Shown here one piece after another: positions 22,646 through 41,706 of a stretch of 64,000 bases of DNA. The notes under the pieces were generated by a model that was not told the DNA's origin, did not search any database, and saw only the letters and a list, made by a program, of their open reading frames with translations. The number at the start of each line of letters is the position of its first letter. The first letter of the stretch is position 1. The DNA is from Ardenticatenaceae bacterium (GTDB lineage Bacteria > Chloroflexota > Anaerolineae > Promineifilales > Promineifilaceae), in contig JASJCR010000052.1 in assembly GCA_030065875.1 (NCBI GenBank), positions 2,347 through 66,346 on the forward strand, written 5' to 3'. Made by a program: the position numbers and the translations under genes.

Positions 22646-24019
22646 ATGAATCCTCCAATCACATCTGACCTGGTCATGCACCGTATGCCAACCGCAGCCC
22701 GCATGCCGCTAGTCGGCAGTCTACCCTATCTAGTGCGCCGGCCGTTTGACTACCTCCGGCAAGCCCATCAGCAGCATGGCGATATCTTTCGCCTCGATCT
22801 GGGCGTGACCGATGCGGTGATGCTCAATCATCCGCGCCACGTACAGTACATCCTGCGCGACAATGTCCGCAACTTCCGCAAGGGAGGCAATATGTGGACC
22901 TCCATCCGCTCGCTGTTTGGCAACGGCCTGGTCGTCAGCGAAGGCGATTTCTGGCTGCGGCAGCGGCGCATGATGCAGCCTCATTTTCACCGCCGCTATC
23001 TGGTCGGGCTGTTTGACCTGATGCTTTCGGCCATCGACGAGCAGCTGGAAACGTGGCCTGCGGCGGCCGAATCGTTCAACATCAGTGAGGCGTTTAACCA
23101 GATCACCATGCGGGTCATTGTGCGCACCATGTTTGGGACACAGCTGGGTGATCAGGAACTGAATCAGCTCAGCGAGGCGATCACCCACGCCCTGGATTAT
23201 CTCCTGCTTGGCGTGGTGGGTGAGTCCCTGCCGTCCTGGGCCCCGATGCCGGGCAAGCAGCGCTATCTGGCCTCGCGCCAAACGTTCGATGACATCGTAT
23301 ACGACGTGATCGGCCGCAGCCGCAAAGCGTCCAACGACACCAGCCTGTTGGGTATGCTGCTCAACACCGTCGATGCTGAAACCGGCGAGCAGATGACCGA
23401 TCAGCAGGTGCGGGATGAGGTGGCGACCATATTTGTGGCCGGCTACGAGACCACGGCCATCGCCCTGGCGTGGGCGGCCGACTACTTGGCGCGCGATCCG
23501 GAATTACAGGGACGGCTGGTGCGGGAAATCGATACCACCATCGGCCGGGAAGCCCCTGATCTAAACTCCCTGCGATCCCTCGACCTGGTGAAACGCACTT
23601 TTCAGGAGGCGCTGCGCATCCGGCCGAGCGCCTGGTTCCTGCCGCGCCTGACGGTTGAAGATGACGAAATCGACGGTCTGCCGCTGCCGGCCGGTACGCA
23701 GGTGGCCCTGCTCATCAGCCACATTCATCATCATCCGGATCAGTGGGCTGAGCCGCATCGCTTTGACCCAGACCGCTTTTTGCCCGAGGTGGCCAAAACC
23801 CGTCATCCATTTGCTTACGTGCCGTTTGGGGCCGGTCAGCGGCAGTGCATCGGCCGCGATTTTGCTTATATGGAAGGGCAGCTCATCCTGGCCCGACTGC
23901 TGCAGCGCTGGCGGCTGCTGCCCCAGGGTGACCCGGCCCGGCCGCAGCTTTCGAGCACCCTGCGGCCCAAAGGCGGGGTGAAAACCCAGCTGTTGAGCTG
24001 GCCCAGGATCATCGTTTGA
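22646..24019 (+). CDS. Cytochrome P450
   Basis: 457-aa ORF with I-helix AGYETT, EALR (ExxR) and the haem-thiolate loop FGAGQRQCIGRDFA. Confidence 0.92.
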   Translation: MNPPITSDLVMHRMPTAARMPLVGSLPYLVRRPFDYLRQAHQQHGDIFRLDLGVTDAVMLNHPRHVQYILRDNVRNFRKGGNMWTSIRSLFGNGLVVSEGDFWLRQRRMMQPHFHRRYLVGLFDLMLSAIDEQLETWPAAAESFNISEAFNQITMRVIVRTMFGTQLGDQELNQLSEAITHALDYLLLGVVGESLPSWAPMPGKQRYLASRQTFDDIVYDVIGRSRKASNDTSLLGMLLNTVDAETGEQMTDQQVRDEVATIFVAGYETTAIALAWAADYLARDPELQGRLVREIDTTIGREAPDLNSLRSLDLVKRTFQEALRIRPSAWFLPRLTVEDDEIDGLPLPAGTQVALLISHIHHHPDQWAEPHRFDPDRFLPEVAKTRHPFAYVPFGAGQRQCIGRDFAYMEGQLILARLLQRWRLLPQGDPARPQLSSTLRPKGGVKTQLLSWPRIIV

Positions 24020-25625
24020 TCATTGGTATCCACACTTTTTCCAAAGTGAGCCACTCGTAGGCCCCGGCGTCGGGTGGGGGAAATCGGCTGCGGCCGTCAT
24101 AGTTAAACGGACTGCTCTGAGTTGGGTGTCCGGCATTGACCAGGGCGGCCGTTTCCGACCCCGGTCGTAAATCGGTATCGCTCAAAAATCCCGGATCGGC
24201 CGCCTGTGAGTGGCTTCCCCATCCCTGACCCTGCCACGCTGCCAGATTGTTCGCCCCGGCGGCCCAGACGCCGCTGCTGAATTGGCAGATATTGTAATCA
24301 ATGACGTCGTAGCTCCCGGCCGTCGCGTCGAGGCAGTGCCACCCCGAGTCGCTGCCGGTCAGCCGCAGGGCATTGCTGACAATCGTATGTCCGCTGCCGG
24401 CATTGAGCACGATCCCCCGGCCGCTGCTCAGGGCCAGGCTGTTGTTGCGAATGGTGACGTCGGTTGAAACGGCGTCACCGGCACCCGGTGTCTTGTCCGG
24501 AACGGCGATCCCGGCCACGCCAAACGCCTGCTGATGCACCACCACGTTGTTTTCGATGGTACAGCTAATGCAGGATGAGGTGCCAATGGCCACGTTACCC
24601 ACGTTTTCCACCCGATTGCCGCGAATGGTGACGTTGGTAAACGCTTCCGGGGTGCTATAACCGGTTGTAATGGAGATCCCCCAGCACGTTTGGTTCGCCT
24701 GCCCCACGTCTTCATGCACATAATTGCCCTCGATGAGCAGGTCGGTGAGGTACCCGTGGCCGACCAAAGAGGTGCCGCCGCAGCGGCCGGACCCGTCCAG
24801 TGAGGATCGGTACAGCTCATTGTTGCGAATGGTGATGCGGCTGCCCCCGCTGACGTAAATGTTGTGGTCAAATACCGTGCCGCTGCCGTTGCGGTCAAAG
24901 ATGCTGTCTTCGATCAGCAAATCGTTGCCTGATCCCAGAAATCCCTGGGAGAAGCTGTTGGTGACGTCGACATTGCTTACGGTGATGCGATCGTTTTGAC
25001 CATTGCATAACGGGTCACCGGCCGCGCAGGGATTGGCCCCGGCCAGGTGAATGCCGATGGCGAATCCGTCCATACTGACGGTGTCGATCACCACGTCGTT
25101 GACGTCATTAAATAAGAAGAATCCCCAGCCGCCGCCGGAGGTGCATGCCGGGCAGCGCAAATCGAGATTGCGAAAGGCGTAACCGCCGTTAGCCACCGCA
25201 TCTCCTCCATTTGACAGCTCAAAGGCGTGGTCATCGGCCGTGCGGTTTAGAATCGGCCGATTTTCATCCCCCGAGGCCCACGGCGGGGTGTAATCCGCGA
25301 TCAGGCAGGGTTGGGCTGCTGTACAGCTAAAGGTCGACCAGCGGCCGCTGCCGCTTCCCAAATCAAACGATCCGCCCCGACAAAAGCGGATTTCATCTCC
25401 CGCCTGAATGCTGCTGTTGAAGTGGTTCCGGGCTTGGTCATAGGTTTGCCAGGGCGCGGCCGGATCGGTGCCGCTGCTGCCGTTGTTCCCTGGCGTACAC
25501 TCTCCATCAGCCCCATTTTGACAGTCACAAACATAGTAAACCGTCGAGGCCGCCTGGCTGTCGGGCTGAAAGAGCAGCACCAGAGAAATGGCAATCGTTA
25601 AAACTGCAATCCATTTGTATGTCAT
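24009..25625 (-). CDS. Secreted right-handed parallel beta-helix repeat protein
   Basis: 538-aa ORF with a signal peptide (MTYKWIAVLTIAISLVLLF). Repeated N/G-rich turns (IRNN, IENN, IRGN) indicate a pectate-lyase-like fold. It ends in VWIPMIKR. Confidence 0.75.
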   Translation of the reverse strand: MTYKWIAVLTIAISLVLLFQPDSQAASTVYYVCDCQNGADGECTPGNNGSSGTDPAAPWQTYDQARNHFNSSIQAGDEIRFCRGGSFDLGSGSGRWSTFSCTAAQPCLIADYTPPWASGDENRPILNRTADDHAFELSNGGDAVANGGYAFRNLDLRCPACTSGGGWGFFLFNDVNDVVIDTVSMDGFAIGIHLAGANPCAAGDPLCNGQNDRITVSNVDVTNSFSQGFLGSGNDLLIEDSIFDRNGSGTVFDHNIYVSGGSRITIRNNELYRSSLDGSGRCGGTSLVGHGYLTDLLIEGNYVHEDVGQANQTCWGISITTGYSTPEAFTNVTIRGNRVENVGNVAIGTSSCISCTIENNVVVHQQAFGVAGIAVPDKTPGAGDAVSTDVTIRNNSLALSSGRGIVLNAGSGHTIVSNALRLTGSDSGWHCLDATAGSYDVIDYNICQFSSGVWAAGANNLAAWQGQGWGSHSQAADPGFLSDTDLRPGSETAALVNAGHPTQSSPFNYDGRSRFPPPDAGAYEWLTLEKVWIPMIKR

Positions 25626-25865
25626 CGTTAACTCCCGTACCGATTGACTTGGTTAGCACAATTCTCAACAGGATACAACATCGCTATTTCCAAAGCTGTT
25701 TCCAAATCTACCCAAAAAAGTAGTCCATTCTTCGATCACCCTGGATTCTTTGGACCGTTTGGCTCGAGCGATTGGGAAACGTTTAAAAATTGCGTTTGCA
25801 TAACTGAAAAGAAACTCAAGTTGCGGCCTCAATGTGCAGTCGAGTAGCAGCTGTCTGGACCTTGA

Positions 25866-26423
25866 CTAAGAAGTTCTTTTTGCAGCACGTCTATTGATTG
25901 CTGCACCCATGCGAACCAGCACGTCCTCCTCGGTAACTTGATGGAGAATCACGCCGCCAATGTGGGCGATCAGCAGTGCAATATAAGATCTGGCGGCCAG
26001 CCCGTGAACGAAATGCGGCGTCAGATCGGTCAAATCGGTCGGTAAGGCGGCCGTTGAACCGGAAAAAATGGATCCCATTTCACCGAGAACCATCAAGCCG
26101 ATCCCGCTAAACGACAGCAGGAGCAGCACCGCATAAAGCAGAAAATGCACCGTTTTGAAGGCGATTTTCTGGAGGAGGGACATCCCTGAAGGGGGTTCGG
26201 GACCGTTTTCCGTCCAGCGCCACCCGATGCGGAAGAGCGTCATCAACAAAATGACCACCCCCAGAACGATGTGGAGCCGATAAAGCGTGAGTTTTATCGC
26301 TTCATTTGTGATCCGGGCCATCGCAAACCCCAGAGGAAACATCAGCAAGATGGCGCCTGCGCTTAGCCAATGAAGGCGCTGGGTTATTTGACTGTAGGTG
26401 ACCGTTGAATTTCTTAAAGACAT
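25866..26423 (-). CDS. Cytochrome b561-family membrane protein
   Basis: 185-aa four-TM ORF with conserved His in TM1, TM2 and TM4 (QRLHWLSAG, RLHIVLG, HIGGVILH). Confidence 0.75.
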   Translation of the reverse strand: MSLRNSTVTYSQITQRLHWLSAGAILLMFPLGFAMARITNEAIKLTLYRLHIVLGVVILLMTLFRIGWRWTENGPEPPSGMSLLQKIAFKTVHFLLYAVLLLLSFSGIGLMVLGEMGSIFSGSTAALPTDLTDLTPHFVHGLAARSYIALLIAHIGGVILHQVTEEDVLVRMGAAINRRAAKRTS

Positions 26424-26446
26424 GATTCCTCCAAGTAGATGATATA

Positions 26447-26465
26447 TGGTTGTTGTAACAACTAT
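26447..26465. promoter_or_regulatory. Second copy of the MarR-type palindrome (imperfect)
   Basis: tGGTTGTTGTAACAACTat lies between the marR stop and the cytochrome b561 start. It differs from the AGTTGTTGCAACAACT core of the 26939 site at two positions. Confidence 0.5.
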
Positions 26466-26477
26466 AGTGCAAAAAAA

Positions 26478-26912
26478 TTAACCCAAATTATCGTGAACGA
26501 TATTGAGTACCTTTCCAATTTGCTCGATATCAGCGGCCGTTAATCCCTGATACGCTTGGTCCAAAACCTCAGCCGCCAGGGGAATAAGCTGCTGCTTTAA
26601 AGCCCGGCCTTCGGCCGTTAAAAATACCTTGTAAACTCGGCGATCGTGCTCATCCCGCTCCCGAATCACCAATCCCCGCCTTTCAAGGACTTCTAACATG
26701 CGGGTGACGTTTGGCTTGTCTTTGAAGGTGAGCTCGGCCAGCTCAACCTGAGATAATCCTTCTCGTTCCCACAGCCGGTTCAACAGAGCCCACTGTTCAG
26801 GGGTGATTTGATGCCCGTGGGCCTTAAAGGCGTGCTGGAGTTCGCGTTTGAGCCGCATGGCCGTGCGATTAATGATAAACCCCAAAGATTCGTCAAAGAC
26901 AAAGTGTTTCAT
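26478..26912 (-). CDS. MarR-family transcriptional regulator
   Basis: 144-aa ORF with LSQVELAELTFKDKPNVTRMLEVLERRGLVIRERDEHDRRVYKVFLTAEG. Confidence 0.88.
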   Translation of the reverse strand: MKHFVFDESLGFIINRTAMRLKRELQHAFKAHGHQITPEQWALLNRLWEREGLSQVELAELTFKDKPNVTRMLEVLERRGLVIRERDEHDRRVYKVFLTAEGRALKQQLIPLAAEVLDQAYQGLTAADIEQIGKVLNIVHDNLG

Positions 26913-26938
26913 ATGGATTGGAACGGATAAATGTGACT

Positions 26939-26960
26939 AATTAGTTGTTGCAACAACTAA
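26939..26960. promoter_or_regulatory. Perfect 22-bp palindrome, candidate MarR operator
   Basis: ATTAGTTGTTGCAACAACTAAT, 27 nt upstream of the MarR start codon. Confidence 0.6.
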
Positions 26961-27057
26961 TATGCCATAGTTGGACCCTGGTGTCAAGCGGTAAAACCAT
27001 CGTGTATGGGATAGGTTAACAGCTTAGAGTGTGTTTAAAATGGGATATTTCTTCACC

Positions 27058-27157
27058 CCCGCATTAAAATGCAGGGCTAAAGTGCCTGACCTGATTGGTG
27101 ACCAACCCTTTAGCCGTCGGTTTTAATCGACGGGTATCGGTTTTAATCGACGGGTAT
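27058..27157. repeat. Nested palindromic element with a 20-nt tandem duplication
   Basis: From left to right: hairpin cccgcattaaaatgcaggg; the outer stem GGCTAAAG...CTTTAGCC enclosing TTGGTGACCAA; hairpin ccgtcggttttaatcgacgg; and the unit cggttttaatcgacgggtat repeated twice (27118-27137, 27138-27157). Confidence 0.7.
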
Positions 27158-27388
27158 AGAAAATATCGTAAAATCGACGATGGATCAGCACATTGAATCA
27201 AATGTCAACAGAACCTAGTAAAGTGAAAGCTGATGATAACCATTTAATGGTACCGGCGAAATTTGAAACTTGCCTTCAATATCCTTCGTAAATATTAATA
27301 AGGTTTTATTTTTAAGCTTTTAAGTGAATCACAATATGTTTTATTTAAAACCAGCCACGGATTTCACAGATCGACTCTGATTTTTGTC

Positions 27389-27457
27389 CTGTAATCTGCG
27401 AAAATCTGCGTAATCTGCGGATAATTTATTTTTGAATAGTTCTTGTAATTCACTTAA
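27389..27457 (+). repeat. AATCTGCG-family dispersed element, copy 1
   Basis: ctgtaatctgcgaaaatctgcgtaatctgcggataatttatttttgaatagttcttgtaattcacttaa. Confidence 0.75.
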
Positions 27458-27596
27458 TCGATCCAAGTTGGCGTGATCTCCTAATCACGCCGACCTTTGA
27501 CGCAATTGGGAAATTGCGCCAACCTTTAATGGGGTTTGCACACCCCTCAATTAAATCAGAATATATAAAATAATTCTCTGAGTCTGGATAATTACT

Positions 27597-28046
27597 ATGA
27601 ATATATGGGTTTCTCTTATATTTATCGCTGTTTTTTTGCTGCTCGTTGGATACGGTCATTTATTTCGTCAGGACGTAAAAAAAATCATTCAAGAAGAAAT
27701 CGAGCGCCTGGGTGGAATCCCTATAGAAGTCTCTGAAAAGCGAGGGTTTTCCGAAGGAATTATATATTATAAGGTCGTCTTTGCAGACCAGTTTGGCCAG
27801 AAATACAATACGGAGTGCATTGTGGATACGCCAAAAAGGCTTTACTGGCTAAAAAACCCCGCTGAACTCATGAGCGGGCAGCAGCCTGCACCTCCTGAAA
27901 ATTCTCAAGTCAATTCGACCGGATTTGAAAGCCGCACAAAATCATCAAAAGAGCAGATCATCGACAGCCTGCATGCCGAAAATCAAAATCTCAAAGAAGA
28001 AATTGAGAGACTGCGCAGCGGCCTCAACCGCCAGAGAGATGCCTGA
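27597..28046 (+). CDS. Hypothetical membrane-anchored protein with C-terminal coiled coil
   Basis: 149-aa ORF with an N-terminal TM (MNIWVSLIFIAVFLLLVGY). The C-terminus EQIIDSLHAENQNLKEEIERLRSGL is heptad-like. It overlaps the next gene by 8 nt. Confidence 0.55.
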   Translation: MNIWVSLIFIAVFLLLVGYGHLFRQDVKKIIQEEIERLGGIPIEVSEKRGFSEGIIYYKVVFADQFGQKYNTECIVDTPKRLYWLKNPAELMSGQQPAPPENSQVNSTGFESRTKSSKEQIIDSLHAENQNLKEEIERLRSGLNRQRDA

Positions 28047-29674: not shown

Positions 29675-29716
29675 CTAAACTAAATCGACTTCATATTTAT
29701 CACCCACCTTCATTAT

Positions 29717-29869: not shown

Positions 29870-29896
29870 TTTAGTAAATTTATTGGGTCAATCCAG

Positions 29897-29934
29897 AACG
29901 TTTTTGATAAAAACGTTTACAATTAAAACGTTTT
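29897..29934. promoter_or_regulatory. Three AACGTT-centred palindromes, candidate MarR operator
   Basis: gAACGTTttt, aaaAACGTTt and aaAACGTTtt lie within 38 nt, ending 17 nt upstream of the MarR start at 29951. Confidence 0.45.
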
Positions 29935-30478: not shown

Positions 30479-30488
30479 ATTCATTGTC

Positions 30489-32948: not shown

Positions 32949-34247
32949 ATGTCAAAAAACAGAATATTTTCCGCCTTTTTGCTCCTCGCGCTCGTGATGT
33001 GGATTAGCAGCTTGGGGCTCTCTCCAACTGTCAAGGCCGTCGCTCCCTCCGAGAAGGGTGATATTGCACAACTCAATGTTCCGCTGGCCCCGCCCATGGA
33101 CAATTTTTTGGATATTTGGGTTGGTGATGGGGTGGACAACCTGGCCTCGGCCGTGGCCTACAACAGCCGGCACGATGAATTTCTGGTGGTATGGGAAAAC
33201 GACCGCGGGGCTACGCGTGACATTTACGCTCGACGTGTGGCCAGCAGTGGGGATATCTTAAGCTGGTTTACCATTGTTTCAAATGCCGGTCGCTGGAATT
33301 ACCTGCCAGACGTTTCTTACAATCCCATCCAGGACGAGTATCTGGTTGTTTACACTTACCAGGTCACGGCAAGCGATTATGATATCTGGGCCCGACGGGT
33401 CAAATGGGACGGGAGCTGGATGAGTCCCGAAATTCCGATCAACCAGGATCCTGCTAAACAATGGTATCCGGCCGTAGCCTACAACAGCCGGGATAACGAA
33501 TACCTCGTGGTTTATGAGAATTACTGGGCGGGCGGTTTGCGCGATATTGCCGCCCAGCGGGTGGCCGGTAACGGCAGTTTACTCAGCTGGCGCAACATCG
33601 CTACCGGGCCAGGAACGACGCGCCGCCTGCCGGACGCGGCATACAACGAGGTTCGCAACGAGTATCTGATTGCATACACATATGATTTCCCCACCAATGG
33701 CGACATTCGCGGCAAAATCACGTCGTTCAACCTGGGTCTGCTCGGTGCCGAAATCGACATCGTAAACAACACCAATCATCAGGATGATGTTGCCCTGACG
33801 GCCGGCCCTAATGAATACCTGGCGATCTGGGAAGATGGGCCGATGCTCTCCGACAGAACTATTTACGGCCGCCGCCTGACCGCCACCGGCGTATTGCAGT
33901 CGTATATTCAGATCGCCGCTCATACAGGAGAATCATGTGTGGAACCGGCTGTCGCCTACAGCGACGTTTACGGCTACATGATCAGCTGGCGGCACATTTC
34001 AGCCATGGGGGATTGGGACGTGTTCGGCCGCCAGATTAAGGCCGGTCACAACCTACCCGCGGACGTTGAATTTCCCATCGACATCGGATCTGATCAGCAA
34101 AAATCACCGGTCCTGGCCTGCTCGCCTCTCGGGTTCTGCCTCCTAGTTGAAGAGGACAACTATTCACCGGCCGGACCGATTGACTATGAAATTCGCGGCC
34201 GGTTAATCCAACCCAACCAGCTGCACCTGCCGATGGTCCGGAAGTGA
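32949..34247 (+). CDS. Secreted protein with seven ~50-aa repeats (propeller-like), unknown family
   Basis: 432-aa ORF with a signal peptide. The repeat core recurs seven times: AVAYNSRHDEFLVVWEND, DVSYNPIQDEYLVVYTYQ, AVAYNSRDNEYLVVYENY, DAAYNEVRNEYLIAYTYD, LTAGPNEYLAIWEDG, AVAYSDVYGYMISWRH and LACSPLGFCLLVEED. It ends in LHLPMVRK. Confidence 0.75.
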   Translation: MSKNRIFSAFLLLALVMWISSLGLSPTVKAVAPSEKGDIAQLNVPLAPPMDNFLDIWVGDGVDNLASAVAYNSRHDEFLVVWENDRGATRDIYARRVASSGDILSWFTIVSNAGRWNYLPDVSYNPIQDEYLVVYTYQVTASDYDIWARRVKWDGSWMSPEIPINQDPAKQWYPAVAYNSRDNEYLVVYENYWAGGLRDIAAQRVAGNGSLLSWRNIATGPGTTRRLPDAAYNEVRNEYLIAYTYDFPTNGDIRGKITSFNLGLLGAEIDIVNNTNHQDDVALTAGPNEYLAIWEDGPMLSDRTIYGRRLTATGVLQSYIQIAAHTGESCVEPAVAYSDVYGYMISWRHISAMGDWDVFGRQIKAGHNLPADVEFPIDIGSDQQKSPVLACSPLGFCLLVEEDNYSPAGPIDYEIRGRLIQPNQLHLPMVRK

Positions 34248-34253
34248 CACATT

Positions 34254-34310
34254 CGCCTTCGATAGGCTCAGGCTCCAGTATTGGCGGTGGCTGAGCTTGT
34301 CGAAGCCATG
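34254..34310. repeat. GGTGGCTGAGCTTGTC-family REP-like element, copy B
   Basis: cgccttcgataggctcaggctccagtattggcggtggctgagcttgtcgaagccatg. Confidence 0.65.
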
Positions 34311-34358
34311 AGCCTCTTGTTTTGAATCATTTAAAAATAAGGCGTTGCAGGCAAACTG

Positions 34359-36335
34359 ATGTCATTAACAAAATCTTACCGGCCGCAGATTGATCGACAA
34401 CCGTCGGCGATCACGATTGGGATTGTGGCTTTTTGTGCGGCGCTGCTGGTGACCCTGCTGCTGCCACAAATGATGGGGAGGGCGTCACGGGCGATCCACG
34501 CCACGCCATTTGAGGGCGCGGCGCTCGATAACCGCAGCGGTATGATCGTCTTGAGTGATGACGGCCGCTATCTGGTCGTCGTCAATCCCGATTCCAACAC
34601 CCTTTCCATTGTAGATCCGGCCGCCCGGCAGCTGCTGGCCGAAATTCCCGTGGGGGTCGACCCGCGCAGCGCAGCCATCACCCGTGATGGCGCAACCGCT
34701 TACGCTGCCAATCAGGGGTCGGACGACATTTCGGTCATCGATGTGGAGAACAGACAACTGCTGGCGACTGTGCCTGTGGGGGACCGGCCGGTCAACGTGA
34801 CCCTCACTCCGGACGGCCGCTACCTGGCCGTAGCGGAACTGGGTGACGACACCGTACGCTTTCTTGATACGTCTACTCTGGCCACCCTGTCCGTTCAGAC
34901 CGTGCCCGACCGGCCGCACGGCCTGAGCTTCACCCCGGACGGTCGCTCGCTGCTTGTGACCCATTTGCTCAGCGGAAGCGTGACCGTTTTGCCGGCCCGC
35001 CCTTATGCTCAATTTCTGCCGCTTGTTGGCCAACAGGGAGCTGTTTTCAGCACGGCGAAACCCTTAAATCAGTCTTCAGGTGCAGCACAAAGCGACCGGC
35101 AAACGATTGCCACCTGGCCTAACGTCGCTCCCGCCCCGGCCGTCGTTATCAACGCGGCCGGCACCCGCGCCTACCTGCCCCAAACGATGGCCAACGGGCT
35201 GGGGCTCAACGTCCAGTTTGACACCACCGTCTTCCCCAAAGTGTCGGTGCTCAATTTGCAGACCGGCACCCATGAGACAAGCGAGCACATCCCCCTGCCG
35301 GAAACCGATCAGCCGGTTGGTCTGCCGTGGGATGTGGCTTTGACTAAAAATGACGCCGAATTATGGGTGGTCAATGCCGCCAGCAATGACGTTTCGATTA
35401 TCAATCTTTCCAATCCGGCTCAGCCGGTCCGAACCGCTCATATTCAGGCCAGAGATAATCCACGGGGGATCGCTTTCAGCCCGGACGGTCAGACCGCCTA
35501 CATCAACAACGTGCTGGCCGGGATTGTCAGCGTGATCGACACCAGCACGTACACGGTCACAACCGAAATTCCCGTGACGACGATCCCTCTGCCGCCGCTG
35601 CTGCTGACCGGCAAGCGGCTGTTCCACAGCAGCGCCACCCCCGAACTGGCCCAGGCGCGCTGGGTTGCCTGCAATACCTGCCATGTCGAAGGGGAGCACG
35701 ACGGCCGGACGTGGCAGCTGCAGTTCACCGGCAGCCCGTCAGCTGTGGCCGGCATTCCCACAATCAGGCGCAATACCACTAGCCTGCTGGGCATGATTGA
35801 AACTTATCCCCTGCGCTGGTCGGCCGAATGGGATGAATCGGCCGACAGCGAGTTTAGCATTCGCTTTGAGCAGTTTGGCGACGGTCTTATCAACGGCGAG
35901 ATGCACCCGACCCTTGGTTTGCCCAACCAGGGGCGCTCCCTCGAATTAGACAGCCTGGCCGCGTATATCGACAGCTTGGCTGTCCCGCAGCGCAGCCACA
36001 CGCTGACTGCAGCCGAGCTGCGGGGCAAAGTACTGTTTGAATCGGCTCAAACCGGCTGCGCCGTCTGTCATCCCCCACCGCTTTACACCAACCTGAGCCA
36101 ATACGACGTGGGCACGGCCGATGGTCCGGGTGAATGGTTTGGCCCGCTGATCGACACCCCTACGCTGCGCTTCTTGTATGACAGCGCTCCCTATTTGCAC
36201 GACGGCAGCGCAGCCACGCTGCATGATGTATTGACGGTCGCCAATCCCCAGGACGAGCACGGGGTGACTTCCCATCTCACGGAAGTGGAATTGGCCGACC
36301 TGGCCGCATTTTTACGGGCGCTGCCTCATGAATGA
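34359..36335 (+). CDS. YVTN-type beta-propeller fused to a di-haem cytochrome c peroxidase (CCP/MauG-like) domain
   Basis: 658-aa ORF with an N-terminal TM anchor. It has repeated D..S..(L/I)SV(I/V)D blades (NTLSIVDPA, DDISVIDVE, NDVSIINLS, GIVSVIDTS), two CxxCH motifs (CNTCH, CAVCH) and a CCP-like PYLHDGSAATLHDV. Confidence 0.85.
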   Translation: MSLTKSYRPQIDRQPSAITIGIVAFCAALLVTLLLPQMMGRASRAIHATPFEGAALDNRSGMIVLSDDGRYLVVVNPDSNTLSIVDPAARQLLAEIPVGVDPRSAAITRDGATAYAANQGSDDISVIDVENRQLLATVPVGDRPVNVTLTPDGRYLAVAELGDDTVRFLDTSTLATLSVQTVPDRPHGLSFTPDGRSLLVTHLLSGSVTVLPARPYAQFLPLVGQQGAVFSTAKPLNQSSGAAQSDRQTIATWPNVAPAPAVVINAAGTRAYLPQTMANGLGLNVQFDTTVFPKVSVLNLQTGTHETSEHIPLPETDQPVGLPWDVALTKNDAELWVVNAASNDVSIINLSNPAQPVRTAHIQARDNPRGIAFSPDGQTAYINNVLAGIVSVIDTSTYTVTTEIPVTTIPLPPLLLTGKRLFHSSATPELAQARWVACNTCHVEGEHDGRTWQLQFTGSPSAVAGIPTIRRNTTSLLGMIETYPLRWSAEWDESADSEFSIRFEQFGDGLINGEMHPTLGLPNQGRSLELDSLAAYIDSLAVPQRSHTLTAAELRGKVLFESAQTGCAVCHPPPLYTNLSQYDVGTADGPGEWFGPLIDTPTLRFLYDSAPYLHDGSAATLHDVLTVANPQDEHGVTSHLTEVELADLAAFLRALPHE

Positions 36336-36350
36336 GTAACGGAGATCCTC

Positions 36351-39300
36351 ATGAACAAAAAAGACCCTTCTTCGATAAAACTATTGCTGCCGCTGGCCCT
36401 GGCCGCGCTTCTAACCCTGCTGGTTTTTTTGGCCGACCGGCCGTTTTTCCAGTCAACCAACGCTTTTGAAGAGCTTGTGGTTATACATTCCCTTGCTTCA
36501 CCTCAAGTCACCTACCCCACCACGCCGCCGGACGCCAGCAAAATTACCGTGGGTGACCCTGATGCTGATGGATACGCAACCGTGACGGGGGGAAACGGGG
36601 CTGTACCGGCCGCTGCTGAGGTGGTGGTGATTAACCTCAATGCCCACACAGTGATGACCGATACCGCCGACGCCAACGGGGCGTTTACGGCCGAACTGTA
36701 TGCGCCCCCCGGTTCCTCGCTGCTCATCAAATATGAAATCGGGCCGGACAATGCAATTGAAAGATTCTGGAATGACGCCGTCATAAAAATTTCCGACGCC
36801 TCCACCGAAAATCTCAATCCGCTACCTGGAACGATGATTTACGTGGCGGCCCCACCCCCGGGAGACGGCACGTCACAGCCGTTTCACGCCGTCGGCAACT
36901 GGTGGAGCGAATCACCCAAAGGGTGGGCCGGTTGGCACGTGAGCGGCACGGTGCAGGCACCACCTGGCGTGCCGCCCGGATTGGCCGCCGAGCCGGGAGA
37001 GCCGGTGACGATAACCGCCAAGGTGTTCCTGACTTCCCCGGCCATCAACTGCACGGGCTCGCCGACTTACACGGCCGCGGCCAACATCGGCCTGCGCTAT
37101 ATGTTTGATGATGAAGGTCGGGCAGAACCGTGGGATATCTGGTTTAACGCCCATCTATTTACCCCCACCGGTTTGCCGATTGAGCACGAAGCGCATGGTG
37201 AAAAGCGACACGTGGTGGGAACACCGGTTACGTCATTTGTCTGTCAGAGCTCACAAACGGTTGCCAGCGATTTGGTGGTCACCTTTAACATACCGGGAGA
37301 TTTCCCGGAGGGGATTTACCGGCCGGAAATTGAGCTGTTTAGCGATGTGCCGCTTGGATCAACCGTTCCGCAGGCTGTAGTCTGGTATCGCACCGGGGAA
37401 GTTGGCCTGCTGCCGCTTTTGCGCGTTGGCGATCCGGCACCGCCGCGCATTCCGTGGACCCTGATGGGGGACGAGCTGCTCAACGGCCATCGCGGGCTGC
37501 AGGCGCGTGAAGACGCCGGATCGTTCCTGATGACGACGCGAGTGGTTTTCCCGCCGCATCAGGTTGTGGTGCCGCGGCTGGATGCTCGCAGCGGTTTGCC
37601 CATCCCCTACCGGCTGGAACCGGGTTCAAACTGGCTGTCCGGAACGGAGCGTCGCCAGCCGCCGCCAACCCATATCCCGCTGGCGCTCCCCTCGGGGGAG
37701 CTAATCGTCGAAATTCTCAAGCCGGACGGCAAGGTCGATCAGCTTGGCCCGGCCGTTATCCTGCAGCCATCGATACGCACGCCGACCACGCCGGGTGGGG
37801 CTCCGATTGGCGAGGCGTCCGGCCATATTGGAGACCTTTTTCACCTGACGACGATGAATCCGTTGTTTGATTACTCTTTTGAGATGGACGGCCCCCACAC
37901 GATTTTTGTCTTTGGGGAAGTGGAAGACATTTACGGCAACGTGTATGGGTTAAACAATGCCTATGACGTGATGGTGGCTCGCGTGCTCGATCTCGACCCG
38001 GCCCAGCTTCCGACCACCCCATATATGATGGGGGATGCGTTTGCGCCCGGCCTGCGTCTGTTCCCACCCGTTCCGGCCGATGTGACGGTGAATCTGGTGC
38101 ACATGCCGTTTTCCGATCCGACGCTGGCCATCACCCAAACCGTCACCGGTCAGGCCAACCGCTTTGGGTATTTCCAGCCGCCGCCCGGAACCGAGATTCG
38201 ATTTGCTTCGCCGGGTGAATTTCGGGTCGATATTAGCGCCGAGTTTGAGACTCCGGAAGGGGAGCTGTGGGCCGGCTATATGACCTGGGGAAGTGTTGTC
38301 GAAGGCCCTGGGGCGCTAATTGAGGCCCACGGCCGCCGCGGGATGAGCTATAAAAGCAACACGATTGACGACATGCCCGCCTGGTTTATCCATCAGCAGC
38401 TGCCGCCGGACAAGGTCGACGTCGATACCTACTATCCGTACTTTAGCGGCGACATTCATTGGGGAAATGAGACGCCCGACAGCAACGACCCCGGTGATTC
38501 AATTCATACGGTCATTACGCTCAAAGACCTGACCGGGGTCAGCGAAACGATTTACAACGTGATGCGCACCCATTTCCCGCGGGCGCGTAACGTGTTCCGC
38601 TGGCCGCCCATCGACACCAGCGCGGTTGGTCTGGAGAAACGGCTCGATATCGGTGAAGCGCCGCTGTTTATCACCACCCAGAGCGGGATCGATCCGGCCG
38701 TCGAGCCAGCCGATATTGATTTGTGGGGGTATTACTATGGCTCATCGCAGCGGCCGGACGTGCGGGTGCGCGAGATTATTGCCGAAGACGGGATGGGCAC
38801 CGCCTACTGGCGCTTTAACGACACGTACGGTTATCAAATTGGGGAGCCGGCCGATGGGGATCAGCCCGGCGACCTCAAGTGGGAGTTCGGCGGCGCGGTG
38901 TTCCGGGTGCCGGACCAGGCCATCAACGAATACGCCATCTACAGCTCGCTGTGGGTGCTGCTGCCGCATAACGACCCGGTTGGTGCGCGCATCACCCCGC
39001 CGTTTCAGGATGCCACCGGAGCCAGCATCAACGGCGGCCCGATCATGGAGCTGTTGGGGGAAGAGATCGACATGCTCTTCCTGCCCAAGGGGGTCAGACC
39101 TGGTGACGTGCTGGAGGTTGGCGATACGATTTCGTTTTCCGGCCACGTTGGTCCACCGCTGGACAGCCTGGTCGACGTGACGATTACCTCGCCTACCGGC
39201 GTGCAGTTCGGCCGCATCTGGCGGGCCAACAAAATCGGCTGGGTTTACGATCCGACATTTGATTTCCCGGCCAATGAGGCGGGGCGATGGACGGTGGATG

Positions 39301-39818
39301 TGTTTGTCGAGCACGACCGGCCGTACGTGGGCAACGGGGTTATTCCTCAGAGCCACAATACCGGCACCGTGCTGGGCACCGGCGGCCGCTATGAATTTTA
39401 CGTCGTGGCGCCGGATACCCCGCAGATGATGATTACCACTCCTCTCCCGGGTTATCTCCCCTGGCCGGAGGATGTGATTGAGCCGATCGAGATTCATGGA
39501 TTTGCCCCGCCGGGTACAACCGCTGTGCACTACACCATTCACGACAAGGGGGTGGTGATGGGTCAGGGAACTCTGGTGCCCGATGCGGGCGGCCGTTTCA
39601 CGATGATCTATGACGCCACCCTACTGCACGATGATTTCCCCATGCTCAGTCTAACCGATCGTGAGGGGCGCTGGGCGGGATTGGCCGACGAAGTAGCTAT
39701 TCACTTTTTAGCTGTGGGCAGCGGCCCATCGCGAGCTACTACCGTCACGTTGATCGGAGAAGAGGTGTTTGTGGGGCAGAGTGCCCGCACTTTGTTTTTA
39801 CCGGTTGTTGTGCGGTGA
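36351..39818 (+). CDS. Large secreted protein of unknown function
   Basis: 1155-aa uninterrupted ORF with a signal/anchor (IKLLLPLALAALLTLLVFLA). It has no CxxCH motif and no motif I recognise. It starts 13 nt after the previous stop and ends in LFLPVVVR. Confidence 0.8.
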   Translation: MNKKDPSSIKLLLPLALAALLTLLVFLADRPFFQSTNAFEELVVIHSLASPQVTYPTTPPDASKITVGDPDADGYATVTGGNGAVPAAAEVVVINLNAHTVMTDTADANGAFTAELYAPPGSSLLIKYEIGPDNAIERFWNDAVIKISDASTENLNPLPGTMIYVAAPPPGDGTSQPFHAVGNWWSESPKGWAGWHVSGTVQAPPGVPPGLAAEPGEPVTITAKVFLTSPAINCTGSPTYTAAANIGLRYMFDDEGRAEPWDIWFNAHLFTPTGLPIEHEAHGEKRHVVGTPVTSFVCQSSQTVASDLVVTFNIPGDFPEGIYRPEIELFSDVPLGSTVPQAVVWYRTGEVGLLPLLRVGDPAPPRIPWTLMGDELLNGHRGLQAREDAGSFLMTTRVVFPPHQVVVPRLDARSGLPIPYRLEPGSNWLSGTERRQPPPTHIPLALPSGELIVEILKPDGKVDQLGPAVILQPSIRTPTTPGGAPIGEASGHIGDLFHLTTMNPLFDYSFEMDGPHTIFVFGEVEDIYGNVYGLNNAYDVMVARVLDLDPAQLPTTPYMMGDAFAPGLRLFPPVPADVTVNLVHMPFSDPTLAITQTVTGQANRFGYFQPPPGTEIRFASPGEFRVDISAEFETPEGELWAGYMTWGSVVEGPGALIEAHGRRGMSYKSNTIDDMPAWFIHQQLPPDKVDVDTYYPYFSGDIHWGNETPDSNDPGDSIHTVITLKDLTGVSETIYNVMRTHFPRARNVFRWPPIDTSAVGLEKRLDIGEAPLFITTQSGIDPAVEPADIDLWGYYYGSSQRPDVRVREIIAEDGMGTAYWRFNDTYGYQIGEPADGDQPGDLKWEFGGAVFRVPDQAINEYAIYSSLWVLLPHNDPVGARITPPFQDATGASINGGPIMELLGEEIDMLFLPKGVRPGDVLEVGDTISFSGHVGPPLDSLVDVTITSPTGVQFGRIWRANKIGWVYDPTFDFPANEAGRWTVDVFVEHDRPYVGNGVIPQSHNTGTVLGTGGRYEFYVVAPDTPQMMITTPLPGYLPWPEDVIEPIEIHGFAPPGTTAVHYTIHDKGVVMGQGTLVPDAGGRFTMIYDATLLHDDFPMLSLTDREGRWAGLADEVAIHFLAVGSGPSRATTVTLIGEEVFVGQSARTLFLPVVVR

Positions 39819-39930
39819 TATTGGGCGGATGGGTAAGAGGTTTATTCAGTTTGGTCTACCAAGCACCCCTGCCCGATTCGGGTTCAGAAGCGGATAGGTA
39901 AAATTTCCGATTCCAAACAGCTCAATAAGC

Positions 39931-40018
39931 TCCCTTCCCCGCATCGGGGAGGGGCTGGGGGAGGGGTGAGCTGACGGAAAGACCCACCCCCTAACCCCCT
40001 CCCGATTCGGGAGGGGGA
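39931..40018. repeat. G/C-run hairpin element inside the cluster spacer
   Basis: Two hairpins, tCCCTTCCCCgcatcGGGGAGGGG and CCCCCTCCCgattcGGGAGGGGG, lie between the 1155-aa gene and the multihaem gene. Confidence 0.65.
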
Positions 40019-40092
40019 ATTTGATGGACTGAAGAAGAGCAACATCGGCAATTTGAATTACCTGACTGCTCCAGAACCATTTTGGAGAAAAA

Positions 40093-41706
40093 ATGTTTAG
40101 CAAAAATAACCACCGCTTGCTGTTAATCGTGTGTGTGTTGATGGCCGCGACAGCCGGTGTGGCGCTGCTGCTTGCCGGCCGGGATCTCATTGCGGCCGGG
40201 GCCGGCACGGTGTCCGGCATTGTGGTTGACGAGAGAGGCGATTCGGCCGCCGGGGCCACCGTGCGCGTGCGGGCCACCGAACATGCGGCGCATACTGATG
40301 CCAACGGCCGTTTTACCTTAGGTGGCCTGACCGAAGGGACAGAAATTGAGGTCACCGCCTGGCGCAGCGGCACCTATATCGCCTCTCTTCACGTCACGCC
40401 GACCGTGAGCGGGGTGACGCTAACCTTGCGACCGCATCACACCGTGGATCACCCCGAGTACGTGTGGACCTCACCGATCAGCAGCACGTCGGCCAAGGCG
40501 TGCGGAAACTGCCATCCCATGATTGTGTCCCAGTGGGAAAACAATGCCCACGGCACGGCCGTCAGCAATCGGCGCTTTTTTAGCCTTTACAACGGCACCA
40601 ACCTCAGCGGCACGGCCAAAATTGCGCCGGGGTATGTGGATGATTTCCCGCTCACGGCCGGGAACTGCGCCAGCTGCCACGCGCCGGGCTGGGGGATCGA
40701 TGGGTATCTGACGACCGATATGAATACAGCGCGCGACGTCATCACCGCCGGCATTCACTGCGACTACTGTCATAAGGTGGGAGATGTCTATCTAAATCCG
40801 GCCGATGGTGCGGTTTATCCCAACGTGCCGGGCGTGGCCGGTCAGAAAATGCTCCGTCCGCCAGCCGGGGACGATATTTTTTTAGGGCCGTATGACGATA
40901 TTCCCGACCCCGATACCTTTGCCCCCGTTTACCAGCAGAGTGGGTACTGCGCTACCTGCCATCAATTTAGCTTCTGGGGCACGCCAATTTACGAATCTTA
41001 CGGGGAATGGCTGGCCAGTCCCTATGTGGCGGCCGGGGTAACCTGCCAGGATTGTCACATGCCGCCCAGCGGTGACATTTACTTTGCTCTACCGGAGCAG
41101 GGAGGGCTGCCGCACCCGCCGGAAGTGATCCCTTCACATCTGCAGCTGGGTGCGGCGGATGCGGATTTTTTGCGGGAGGCGATCACCATGACCCTGTCGG
41201 CCCGGCAGGTTGGCCGGGTAATTGAGGCCACCGTCAGCGTGACGAATACCGGTGGCGGCCATCATTATCCAACCGATCATCCCGGTCGGCATCTGATTTT
41301 AACGGTGACGGCTGCCGATGGTGGGGGGGCACCTCTGGCGCAGCAGGCCGGGTCGACCGTGCCCGACTGGGGTGGAGCTCAGGCCGGGCGGCCGGGTACG
41401 GTTTACGCCAAAATTTTGGCCGACGCGGTGACCGGTGAAGCGCCGGTCGTCAGCTATTGGAAACAAACCTATATTGCCAGCGATAACCGTCTGCCTGCTT
41501 TAACCGGAGATACATCCGTTTATACCTTTGCGATGCCGGACAGCGGCACGGCTGCCCTGACGGCCGAGCTGCGTTTCCGGCGAGCGTTTCAGCCGCTATT
41601 GGATAGTAGAGGATGGCCGGATTCAGACATTGTTCTGGCTCAGGCGGATACGGCCGTTGATGTGCAGCCGGTATGGCTAATTTATTTACCTCGTATAGGC
41701 AGGTGA
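40093..41706 (+). CDS. Secreted penta-haem c-type cytochrome with N-terminal carboxypeptidase-regulatory-like domain
   Basis: 537-aa ORF with a signal peptide. GTVSGIVVDERGDSAAGATVRV...TDANGRFTLGGL is CarboxypepD_reg-like. Five CxxCH motifs are present (CGNCH, CASCH, CDYCH, CATCH, CQDCH). It ends in IYLPRIGR. Confidence 0.85.
   Translation: MFSKNNHRLLLIVCVLMAATAGVALLLAGRDLIAAGAGTVSGIVVDERGDSAAGATVRVRATEHAAHTDANGRFTLGGLTEGTEIEVTAWRSGTYIASLHVTPTVSGVTLTLRPHHTVDHPEYVWTSPISSTSAKACGNCHPMIVSQWENNAHGTAVSNRRFFSLYNGTNLSGTAKIAPGYVDDFPLTAGNCASCHAPGWGIDGYLTTDMNTARDVITAGIHCDYCHKVGDVYLNPADGAVYPNVPGVAGQKMLRPPAGDDIFLGPYDDIPDPDTFAPVYQQSGYCATCHQFSFWGTPIYESYGEWLASPYVAAGVTCQDCHMPPSGDIYFALPEQGGLPHPPEVIPSHLQLGAADADFLREAITMTLSARQVGRVIEATVSVTNTGGGHHYPTDHPGRHLILTVTAADGGGAPLAQQAGSTVPDWGGAQAGRPGTVYAKILADAVTGEAPVVSYWKQTYIASDNRLPALTGDTSVYTFAMPDSGTAALTAELRFRRAFQPLLDSRGWPDSDIVLAQADTAVDVQPVWLIYLPRIGR

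Follow-up and report, generated by a model that had tools for sequence, protein, structure and literature searches.

Several classes of C-terminal sorting signal have been described for exported proteins. The LPXTG signals of sortase substrates occur on many unrelated surface proteins that also carry an N-terminal signal peptide, and they comprise 30-40 residues, in which a motif centred on Leu-Pro and containing Thr-Gly is combined with a hydrophobic helix of 15-20 residues and a basic cluster; a Pro/Thr-rich spacer sometimes precedes the motif. The signals of the PEP-CTERM/exosortase, PGF-CTERM/archaeosortase, GlyGly-CTERM/rhombosortase and MYXO-CTERM/myxosortase systems are lineage-restricted, multi-copy and modular, and they are interchangeable in homologues. 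Each of these tripartite signals is built from a signature motif, a transmembrane (TM) helix and an Arg cluster, and intramembrane proteases cleave them (bioRxiv 10.1101/2023.06.07.544157; PMC11980579). In one phylum, the Bacteroidota, diverse secreted and surface proteins carry the C-terminal domain (CTD) of the type IX secretion system, a sorting element that lacks a TM helix and folds into a beta-sandwich of about 70-100 residues. The outer-membrane beta-signal is a C-terminal aromatic residue, usually Phe, that ends a barrel strand. In the Braun lipoprotein the C-terminal Lys is required and is cross-linked to peptidoglycan by L,D-transpeptidases. Short C-terminal tags that are read by a receptor or an enzyme are known from eukaryotes, namely the KDEL/HDEL retrieval signal, the PTS1 signal -SKL and the CaaX box.

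The window analysed here, a stretch of 64,000 nucleotides from an Ardenticatenaceae bacterium, encodes four proteins which share a tail of eight residues directly before the stop codon:

24009..25625, minus strand: secreted beta-helix protein of 538 aa with a signal peptide (Pfam Beta_helix/NosD)
24012..24035, minus strand: its tail, VWIPMIKR (stop codon 24009-24011)
32949..34247, plus strand: secreted repeat protein of 432 aa with a signal peptide, without a Pfam family (Pfam and NCBIfam scans)
34221..34244, plus strand: its tail, LHLPMVRK (stop codon 34245-34247)
36351..39818, plus strand: secreted protein of 1155 aa with a signal peptide; in Pfam no more than weak Ig/CarboxypepD_reg-like matches
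39792..39815, plus strand: its tail, LFLPVVVR (stop codon 39816-39818)
40093..41706, plus strand: secreted multihaem c-type cytochrome of 537 aa with an N-terminal CarboxypepD_reg domain (Pfam and NCBIfam)
41680..41703, plus strand: its tail, IYLPRIGR (stop codon 41704-41706)

The tails and their DNA proved to be exactly as the first-pass annotation had quoted them, and its statement that all four proteins are exported agrees with the N-terminal signal peptide predicted in 4/4. Each tail is directly followed by TGA. The cytochrome tail, with Arg at -4 and Gly at -2, is the weakest of the four. We found that the pattern [LIV]P.[VIL].[RK]$ is matched by four of the 581 window ORFs (stop-to-stop, at least 50 aa, all six frames), which are exactly the four tail proteins. 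At internal positions of the 55 likely genes of the window, the 7-residue expression gave 2 matches in 17,309.

The tail resembles the LPXTG signals in its Leu-Pro centre, its basic end, its combination with a signal peptide on many unrelated proteins and the presence of a sortase gene in the window. Moreover, a long Pro/Thr- or Asp/Pro-rich spacer, of a type typical of surface tethers, precedes it in 4/87 proteins. However, the signal spans only 8-12 residues, has neither Thr-Gly nor the hydrophobic helix, carries a single R/K in place of the basic cluster and does not conform to any of the pentapeptides LPXTG, LAXTG, NPQTN or LPNTA with a small P1' residue; nor was an association with sortase genes seen in 80 loci of sortase relatives. 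The absence of a hydrophobic helix after the motif, which had been noted for the window proteins, was confirmed, and none of 1,669 proteins examined proved to be a tripartite ancestor or variant, with a TM helix after the motif. The tail also lacks the Arg cluster of the tripartite signals and, since it has no TM helix, could not reach an intramembrane enzyme in the way they do, although it shares their lineage restriction, copy number, modularity and interchangeability. In contrast to the type IX CTD it is a peptide of eight residues, predicted to be disordered, without a Pfam or NCBIfam match, and in contrast to the beta-signal it ends in R/K or a polar residue on cargo of soluble folds. A basic residue at the extreme C-terminus of an exported protein recalls the wall attachment of the Braun lipoprotein, but in the tail Arg is as common as Lys or commoner, and up to four residues may follow the basic one. 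In size and logic, as a short and portable tag that would be read in trans, the closest analogy is to KDEL/HDEL, -SKL and CaaX; these belong to another domain of life and have other sequences and machinery, and the likeness is one of functional analogy only.

In the four window proteins no Pfam or NCBIfam model covers the tail, and no NCBIfam sorting-domain model matches at E<=1. No description of it was found in open-access papers and preprints, and the tail has apparently been undescribed until now.

The consensus reads [polar/basic]-[V/I/L]-[Y/F/W]-L-P-[L/M/V]-[V/I]-[V/L/x]-[R/K], then 0-3 residues to the C-terminus, or in short hydrophobic-Tyr-Leu-Pro-Leu-Val-Val-Arg and stop. Pro is invariant, Leu precedes it in about 90% and an aromatic residue stands at -7; six or seven hydrophobic residues lie between basic or polar ones. 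Counted from L-P, V, I, T or A occupies the fourth position; the fifth is taken by V or L, and G, N or A is never seen there. Between one and four residues lie beyond the 7-residue core in 191/194 near-terminal cases. The specific conservation of Pro, Leu and the aromatic residue points to recognition by a protein rather than to mere hydrophobicity.

The motif is real and far beyond chance. Among 332 Chloroflexota ORFs that were not chosen by the search pattern, 10 end in a strict tail, whereas internal positions match at a rate of 1.6e-4 each; this is a 189-fold enrichment at the C-terminus (Poisson P=4e-20). Shadow-frame ORFs gave 1 match in 549 non-seed ORFs. The conservation at the level of the peptide and not of the DNA, first claimed from the four window tails, holds well beyond them: in 90 identical tails the 24 nt of DNA take 88 different forms, each of the three stop codons occurs after them, and the flanking DNA has zero information content. 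Because the DNA is unconstrained, selection acts on the peptide. Genes with a tail make up 7% of the genes of the window, about 4% of those near seed hits and about 0.2-0.3% of those in sortase-centred loci, which indicates clustering and possibly an uneven distribution among lineages, and makes the abundance per genome uncertain.

The first-pass annotation had made its reading depend on C-terminal enrichment and on retention of the tail in orthologues, and on the second point, too, the data bear it out. The tail is kept in 41/43 best homologues of the beta-helix protein and in at least 103/120 homologues of the 432-aa repeat protein, two unrelated families, down to about 45-55% identity. In the repeat family it often carries 1-4 extra polar residues, and many members have Thr or Ala at the P1 position; one homologue from an Ardenticatenaceae MAG (P0121) is 100% identical to the window protein. 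Where an extra domain of about 100 aa has been added, the tail is still terminal. One distant relative of the 1155-aa protein (L037) and one of the multihaem cytochrome (L060) are without the tail.

A scan of 185,579 species genomes for a hydrophobic residue followed by YLPLVVR and stop gave at least 120 loci, and 91 of the 120 listed are from Chloroflexota. Among the matches listed, 90/92 from Chloroflexota end long ORFs, against 3/29 from elsewhere (OR 390, P=7e-21), and most of the Chloroflexota ORFs also carry a signal peptide; 23/29 of the latter lie in junk ORFs, and two apparent exceptions trace back to Chloroflexota as mis-binned contigs. By the taxon labels, which are MAG titles, the tail extends over at least five NCBI classes (Chloroflexia, Anaerolineae, Ardenticatenia, Caldilineae and Thermoflexia). 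It is a lineage-specific feature on many unrelated secreted proteins of filamentous Chloroflexota.

The 88 tail proteins fall into 63 BLAST clusters of proteins typical of cell surfaces, and their domains include PKD, FG-GAP, LRR, cadherin-like/DUF11, M23 with LamG, SBBP, beta-helix and multihaem cytochrome. With a crude predictor, signal peptides were found in 48/54 complete tail ORFs and in 118/276 others (OR 10.7, P=1.5e-10), and many signal-peptide proteins are without the tail. The AlphaFold2 model of the beta-helix protein has a mean pLDDT of 91.6, with values below 50 only at residues 20-22 and 530-538, which places the tail outside the fold in a probably disordered state. Restriction to exported proteins, modularity across unrelated families and many copies per lineage are among the criteria by which Haft and colleagues recognise sorting signals, and the tail shows all three.

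In the beta-helix protein, a segment like the choice-of-anchor-Q domain is followed by a short linker and then by VWIPMIKR. We found MYXO-CTERM, a validated sorting signal, above its curated cutoff at the same position in the deltaproteobacterial homologues P0060, P0062 and P0080. The choice_anch_Q model lies upstream of this slot, above cutoff in P0058 and below threshold (13-20 bits) in 6/10 tail-bearing orthologues, where it ends 14-15 residues before the C-terminus. The exchange of one sorting signal for another in homologues is what defines a 'choice of anchor', and here MYXO-CTERM is exchanged for the tail. Modularity, the association with signal peptides, the disorder predicted by AlphaFold2 and the replacement by MYXO-CTERM strongly suggest a sorting or processing function. 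What had been proposed as a possible sorting or processing signal therefore stands as a TM-less, peptide-level signal on secreted proteins, with a function that is strongly suggested.

A fifth copy of the motif lies within a neighbouring gene:

34359..36335, plus strand: 658-aa protein with a YVTN beta-propeller and a di-haem peroxidase-like domain, N-terminal signal or anchor, C-terminus not a tail
35007..35036, plus strand: internal motif copy AQFLPLVGQQ, residues 217-226, loop in blade 4

This copy is real and under selection: 99/112 homologues keep it, often in the canonical form YLPLVLR or YLPLILK, and P221 is invariant; a hypervariable linker lies directly beyond it. It had been placed at a domain junction and taken as a trace of an ancestral gene fusion. 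Its presence and conservation hold, but in the AlphaFold2 model residues 218-244 have a pLDDT below 50 and lie between strands 208-212 and 248-250, and the copy would therefore sit in a disordered loop inside blade 4 and not at a junction. A HMMER search with residues 1-226 retrieved mostly giant YVTN-repeat proteins and a single stand-alone homologue of 239 aa that ends at the motif (P0383, ...LYLPLILRPW), on a 1.2-kb contig that ends 15 nt beyond the stop codon. This homologue is the sole support for a fusion, and we rejected that reading in favour of a loop in one continuous propeller. The conserved internal copy shows that a free C-terminus is not always required, which complicates a simple C-terminal-tag model.

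The window also encodes one candidate reader:

54018..54974, plus strand: membrane-anchored sortase-family transpeptidase of 318 aa (Pfam Sortase, E=1e-34)

It is a genuine sortase-family enzyme, with a cytoplasmic N-terminal region, one TM helix and a catalytic domain at residues 187-312, in which we read His, the Cys of TLISC and Arg. Its earlier assignment to class E goes too far, since it reaches 103.9 bits against the NCBIfam class E model with a cutoff of 160 and stays below every curated class cutoff. A link between this enzyme and the tail finds no backing in the neighbourhoods of its close relatives, where 80 metagenomic loci hold 1-2 tail genes among 628 ORFs, without enrichment. All-versus-all clustering of the 573 ORFs of tail-centred loci likewise revealed no recurrent non-tail family. 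The best-recurring neighbour family occurs at 4 of about 90 tail loci, and by their sequences the recurring neighbours are generic (an ABC ATPase, a PD40-repeat protein, a large regulatory ATPase-like protein, an RlmN-like protein and similar).

It is nevertheless conceivable that the tail is a miniaturised wall-sorting signal, read at L-P-x-[V/I/T/A] by a sortase such as that at 54018-54974 and cut after the fourth residue. The last 2-6 residues would then be released and the protein linked to peptidoglycan, and the internal copy would be cut in the propeller loop, which would account for a motif tolerated at an exposed site. Conservation within the motif is highest at Leu-Pro, as it is in LPXTG, the P1 residue is often beta-branched, with many 432-aa family members showing Thr or Ala there, a basic residue ends the tail as it ends sortase signals, and the window sortase has an intact His/Cys/Arg triad. 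Moreover, canonical substrates with LPXTG, TM helix and basic end were found neither in 510 Chloroflexota ORFs nor in the 628 ORFs of the sortase loci, which leaves the Chloroflexota sortases without obvious substrates. Yet Gly or another small residue is never seen at P1', the TM helix by which sortase signals keep their substrate at the membrane, one of the features that define them, is missing, tail genes do not gather around the sortase relatives, and the 54018 enzyme lies under all curated class cutoffs. We regard a sortase substrate as rather unlikely.

The hydrophobic stretch bracketed by basic or polar residues, its predicted disorder and exposure, and the failure of the neighbourhood analyses to find a partner gene would also suit a passive anchor, which partitions, without any reader, into the membrane's outer leaflet or a hydrophobic layer of the envelope. 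This is improbable, as partitioning needs no invariant Pro, no Leu before it in about 90% and no aromatic residue at -7, and would not be expected to limit the residues past the core to four; by a rough estimate from interfacial hydrophobicity scales, seven residues with a Pro would contribute about -1 to -2 kcal/mol, too little for stable anchoring. PDZ proteases such as Tsp/Prc and DegS take hydrophobic C-termini as ligands, and a disordered, accessible motif within four residues of the C-terminus could be a maturation or turnover signal, through which a tail-specific or PDZ-domain protease trims, activates or degrades the protein, with no role in localisation. The known PDZ-protease ligands do not, however, end in a basic residue that 1-4 polar residues may follow, a degradation tag conserved over classes on dozens of large and costly surface proteins is hard to rationalise, a bona fide surface-sorting signal fills the same slot in homologues, and the motif is conserved in an internal loop as well; this reading is highly improbable. 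For an artefact we found no supporting point, and its probability is negligible. Chance or composition is ruled out by the window count, the 189-fold enrichment and the odds ratio of 390, a DNA- or RNA-level element such as a terminator or repeat over the stop codon by the codon diversity (88 DNAs for 90 tails) and the uninformative flanks, and a structural folding strand by the disorder in the AlphaFold2 models and the presence on at least 63 unrelated folds.

We therefore consider that the tail is probably a modular, lineage-specific short linear motif, which serves as an envelope-sorting or retention signal and is read in trans by a dedicated factor. It would be a disordered tag added to Sec-exported proteins of filamentous Chloroflexota. 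After export and removal of the signal peptide, the exposed tail would be recognised by this putative factor, which may be an enzyme that processes it or a receptor that docks it, and recognition would keep the cargo from diffusing away and hold it within or on the multilayered envelope (the wall, the outer layer or a protein layer). We infer that the tail directs localisation and that a specific protein reads it, with or without cleavage. In the lineages concerned, the envelope comprises an intermediate compartment and an outer layer as well as a protein lattice (PMC13319060; bioRxiv 10.1101/2025.08.19.671072). A bolder proposal, which we make only tentatively, is that the tail represents a new class of sorting signal, an 8-residue, TM-less, near-C-terminal tag with a putative Chloroflexota-specific receptor or enzyme, that delivers or tethers dozens of exoproteins in each genome, multihaem cytochromes among them, to the unusual outer layers of these filamentous, 'monoderm-like' bacteria. 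If so, the conserved copy in the internal loop implies that the machinery also acts on internal sites.

Soils, sediments, hot springs and wastewater plants all harbour abundant Chloroflexota, yet to our knowledge next to nothing has been described of how their unusual multilayered envelope is built and populated with proteins. Every established prokaryotic C-terminal sorting system that we know of relies on a TM helix or a folded domain. A conserved tag of eight residues would need another mechanism and hence points to undiscovered machinery. The motif would provide a simple sequence rule to predict the surface and envelope proteome of Chloroflexota MAGs, including hydrolases and the cytochromes of extracellular electron transfer, and a phylogenetic marker for mis-binned contigs, two of which surfaced in our scan. 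Furthermore, it may serve as a pull-down handle toward the reader and possibly as a portable display tag.

Four exported proteins of the window end in a short peptide with a Leu-Pro or, in one of them, Ile-Pro core. The tails listed by the first-pass annotation were confirmed in the sequence, each with TGA directly after it, and signal peptides are present at the start of all four proteins, in line with the signal peptides or anchors that had been stated:

24012-24035, minus strand: VWIPMIKR, then TGA; right-handed beta-helix protein (24009-25625)
34221-34244, plus strand: LHLPMVRK, then TGA; 432-aa repeat protein, no Pfam family
39792-39815, plus strand: LFLPVVVR, then TGA; 1155-aa protein, weak Ig-like matches only
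41680-41703, plus strand: IYLPRIGR, then TGA; multihaem c-type cytochrome

Among 581 ORFs (stop to stop, at least 50 aa, six frames), just these four end in [LIV]P.[VIL].[RK], and the equivalent 7-residue pattern occurs at 2 of 17,309 internal positions of the 55 likely window genes. Scans of the four proteins against Pfam and NCBIfam gave no model that spans the tail. The closest homologues of the tested window proteins are labelled Anaerolineae, Ardenticatenaceae, Caldilineaceae or Chloroflexota, and P0121 from an Ardenticatenaceae MAG matches the 432-aa protein at 100% identity. These homologues place the window in the Chloroflexota, in class Ardenticatenia of the NCBI taxonomy.

The stretch 32949-41706 holds four successive exported-protein genes on one strand, encoding the repeat protein, a propeller with a di-haem peroxidase (propeller-peroxidase, 34359-36335), the 1155-aa protein and the multihaem cytochrome. 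It could be an extracellular redox module with the motif on every part. Homologues of the repeat protein (P0122) and of the propeller-peroxidase (P0392) each lie on a 4,044-nt Logan contig, possibly one and the same, which would indicate that the adjacency of the two genes is conserved. The G+C content is 0.57-0.60 around this cluster (34001-42000) compared to 0.42-0.49 at 4001-20000, where the low value may reflect a mosaic origin or horizontal acquisition. The beta-helix gene overlaps by 11 nt (24009-24019) with the 3' end of a convergent 457-aa ORF (22646-24019, plus strand) that reads as cytochrome P450-like. At 42390-43268 (plus strand), an N-terminally anchored protein of 292 aa consists of two near-identical halves of about 110 residues (...GGHAQGSAYWEILGGVFDGQNLQLIM...CNEWWSHNF.VE.SQVTLRTSVNKCGEAIV...) and belongs to no family in Pfam or NCBIfam.

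The tail is retained in orthologues of two unrelated carrier families; its absence from orthologues was an outcome that the first-pass annotation had named as refuting. In the beta-helix family, a near-terminal phi-[Y/F/W]-L-P-phi-phi-phi-[R/K] tail (e.g. VYLPLVLR, LFLPLVVR, VWLPLVVK) is found in 41 of the 43 best matches, from 99% down to about 54% identity; the other two are a truncated fragment and a protein with 30 residues added past the motif. Where homologues have gained a further domain (about 100 residues), the tail remains at their extreme end (P0022, P0034, P0039, P0042, P0045, P0061, P0064-66). In the 432-aa family, 103 of 120 homologues have a tail matching the pattern and the remainder mostly show visible near-variants; many continue for 1-4 polar residues past the basic one (e.g. 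...YLPLVLRNH, ...YLPLVLRNSP, ...YLPLMLKSY). One distant relative each of the 1155-aa protein and the cytochrome lacks the tail.

Conservation acts on the peptide, as had been proposed. A set of 90 tails with an identical peptide is encoded by 88 distinct 24-nt sequences, in which each synonymous codon and each of the three stop codons occurs, and the flanks have zero information content over 30 nt upstream and 45 nt downstream. The codon diversity and uninformative flanks rule out a terminator, repeat or other nucleic-acid element. Sets unbiased by the search pattern give the consensus [polar/basic]-[V/I/L]-[Y/F/W]-L-P-[L/M/V]-[V/I]-[V/L, more variable]-[R/K], with an invariant Pro preceded by Leu in about 90%; position -9 is K/R in many tails. 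The 7-residue core is followed by one residue in 122 cases, by two to four in 69 and by five to seven in 3, with practically nothing beyond. A check of C-terminal extensions in 1,669 proteins found no variant with a transmembrane helix and basic cluster after the motif, in agreement with the earlier remark that no hydrophobic helix follows. In an AlphaFold2 model of the beta-helix protein (45-sequence alignment, mean pLDDT 91.6), values below 50 occur only at residues 20-22, the signal-peptide junction, and at 530-538, the tail. The tail is thus predicted to be a conserved yet unstructured linear motif, a combination that would imply a reader acting in trans.

In one genome per species (185,579 in all), we searched the DNA for sequences that encode phi-Y-[L/F]-P-[L/F]-V-V-R plus a stop-like codon and obtained at least 120 loci, where by our own estimate chance predicts in the order of 140 matches. 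Only a few percent of species are Chloroflexota, and they account for 91 of the 120 loci among the matches listed, including Roseiflexus, Chloroflexus, Oscillochloris, Candidatus Viridilinea, Anaerolinea, Longilinea, Caldilinea/Caldilineales, Ardenticatenaceae, Promineifilaceae and Thermoflexales. Dehalococcoidia, Ktedonobacteria and Thermomicrobia labels do not occur among these 120; MAG titles are vague and this is only suggestive. Among the matches listed, 90 of 92 from Chloroflexota lie at the ends of long ORFs (2,299 codons at most), whereas at the 29 listed loci from elsewhere 23 matches fall in ORFs shorter than 40 codons, as chance predicts, and only 3 are at the end of a long one (Fisher OR 390, P=7e-21). 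Two foreign labels are probably mis-binned Chloroflexota contigs. The 'Cellvibrionaceae' protein at L027 (contig JBLIMP010000224.1) clusters at ≥90% identity with one from a Candidatus Promineifilaceae MAG, and the 'Elioraea' match at L074 (contig CALFVI010000026.1) lies at a contig edge and repeats the tail context of Roseiflexus. Such binning errors suggest that the motif could act as a contamination marker.

The enrichment at C-termini, another test named in the first-pass annotation, also holds in ORFs that were not selected by the motif. Within the 8-kb loci, 332 long Chloroflexota ORFs outside the search pattern contain 10 strict and 4 loose tails, compared to 1 tail in 549 non-seed ORFs of the shadow-frame control. 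The pattern occurs inside proteins at 1.6e-4 per position, giving a 189-fold C-terminal enrichment (Poisson P=4e-20). Signal peptides were predicted for 48 of 54 complete tail ORFs and 118 of 276 others (OR 10.7, P=1.5e-10), with a crude predictor whose counts include membrane proteins.

The propeller-peroxidase carries an internal fifth copy at residues 217-226, for which a domain-junction position and an ancestral gene fusion had been suggested. The copy is no chance match: it is kept by 99 of 112 alignable homologues (61-99% identity) with an invariant Pro. It is often more canonical there (YLPLVLR, YLPLILK) than in the window protein, and is always trailed by a linker of about 30-50 residues that is hypervariable and of low complexity. 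The junction did not hold up: AlphaFold2 is confident at 56-217 and 245-410, with 218-244 disordered, and places strands at 186-191, 197-202, 208-212 and then 248-250, so that the motif is modelled in a loop within blade 4 of one continuous propeller. A fusion is weakly supported at best, since the single stand-alone homologue, P0383 (239 aa), which ends in ...LYLPLILRPW-stop exactly at the internal motif, lies on a contig of 1,237 nt that extends 15 nt past the stop. The motif can persist in an exposed loop inside a protein. Either the C-terminus need not strictly be free, as would fit a docking peptide, or cleavage of the loop makes a free one, as would fit a processing site.

The cargo is diverse: 88 tail proteins from the loci and the window fall into 63 BLAST clusters. 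Sampled domains include PKD and PMP repeats, FG-GAP, LRR, Big_9/cadherin-like/DUF11, peptidase M23 with LamG and SBBP propellers, to which the window adds the beta-helix and the cytochrome. In other phyla, such a repertoire usually bears LPXTG, PEP-CTERM or T9SS signals. Long Pro/Thr- or Asp/Pro-rich spacers precede 4 of 87 tails.

Within the beta-helix family, the segment directly upstream of the C-terminal signal matches the NCBIfam choice-of-anchor Q model in 23 of 45 aligned members, with P0058 over the cutoff. 'Choice-of-anchor' domains are so named in NCBIfam since the C-terminal anchor behind them varies with the lineage. Six of ten tail-bearing Chloroflexota members give sub-threshold matches (13-20 bits, cutoff 25) that end 14-15 residues short of the C-terminus, abutting linker and tail. 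At the position of the tail, deltaproteobacterial homologues have a Cys-containing motif, a transmembrane helix and an Arg cluster, and P0060, P0062 and P0080 exceed the curated TIGR03901 cutoff for MYXO-CTERM, a surface-sorting tag with experimental support (PMC11980579). Judged from these matches, the Chloroflexota tail behaves as one more anchor after the choice-of-anchor domain. Other beta-helix homologues (P0059, P0063, P0067, P0069-P0079 and others), some labelled Xanthomonadales, Pseudomonadota, Holophagales or Acidobacteriota, have a conserved 'F.DGFESGD.S.W' motif in the slot of the tail, possibly a further alternative signal. Moreover, three Chloroflexota ORFs (L018:1856-3703, plus; L018:3-1679, plus; L021:518-3091, minus) end in W-P-W, a transmembrane helix and an Arg/Lys cluster (e.g. 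...TPWPWLALCIIVLGLAAIFRRG...). No NCBIfam model matches this C-terminus, which may be a second undescribed sorting signal of Chloroflexota.

We rate the tail as a probable C-terminal protein-sorting signal, and searches of Pfam, of NCBIfam release 20 and of open-access papers and preprints turned up no prior account of it. Like LPXTG, it has a Leu-Pro core and a signal-peptide requirement; its basic end is a single R/K in place of the canonical cluster, and the defining Thr-Gly and the transmembrane helix are missing. It also lacks the tripartite build that defines exosortase, archaeosortase, rhombosortase and myxosortase signals (bioRxiv 10.1101/2023.06.07.544157), is not a folded domain like the T9SS CTD, and departs from the terminal-aromatic rule of the outer-membrane-protein beta-signal. 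By analogy only, the eukaryotic KDEL, PTS1 and CaaX tags come nearest in size and logic. A categorically new mechanism is a real possibility, towards which we are slightly sceptical.

Probably, the tail is a lineage-specific envelope-sorting or retention tag that would be read in trans by a putative factor, which would act by sortase-type cleavage or by non-covalent docking. Cleavage of this type seems unlikely to us. In its favour, canonical signals of LPXTG, transmembrane helix and basic residues are absent from all Chloroflexota DNA examined, which leaves the window sortase and its relatives without obvious substrates. The window protein at 54018-54974 (plus strand), previously called a class E sortase, is a true sortase with a membrane anchor (Pfam E=1e-34; His, Cys of TLISC and Arg present); the class is not supported, as it scores under every curated class cutoff (e.g. 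103.9 vs 160 bits for class E). Around its close relatives, 80 metagenomic loci (719 kb, 628 ORFs) hold just one or two real tails, and LPXTG-type substrates are absent there. This counts neither for nor against a sortase that acts as a housekeeping enzyme, but it shows that the window, with its 4 in 55, has a local cluster of genes for secreted proteins. Beside tail genes, no family without the tail recurs; the most frequent is found in 4 of about 90 loci, and all that recur resemble generic housekeeping or regulatory proteins. Purely physicochemical anchoring, a turnover signal and an artefact are, in this order, progressively less likely. Next to the sortase genes of at least two relatives, an ORF of about 105-115 aa overlaps or directly follows the sortase gene (L125:7930-8271 and L155:1733-2050, both plus); its conserved C-terminal transmembrane segment (...Y.Y[VI][VI].DL[KR]RI...) is that of what may be a conserved sortase partner.

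The envelope of Litorilinea aerophila was described as multilayered and as comprising an intermediate compartment, an outer layer common to the filament and a protein lattice, and a likeness to Roseiflexus was noted (PMC13319060; bioRxiv 10.1101/2025.08.19.671072). The tail-bearing lineages are those with a reported multilayered envelope. It is plausible that this envelope is the destination of the tail proteins.
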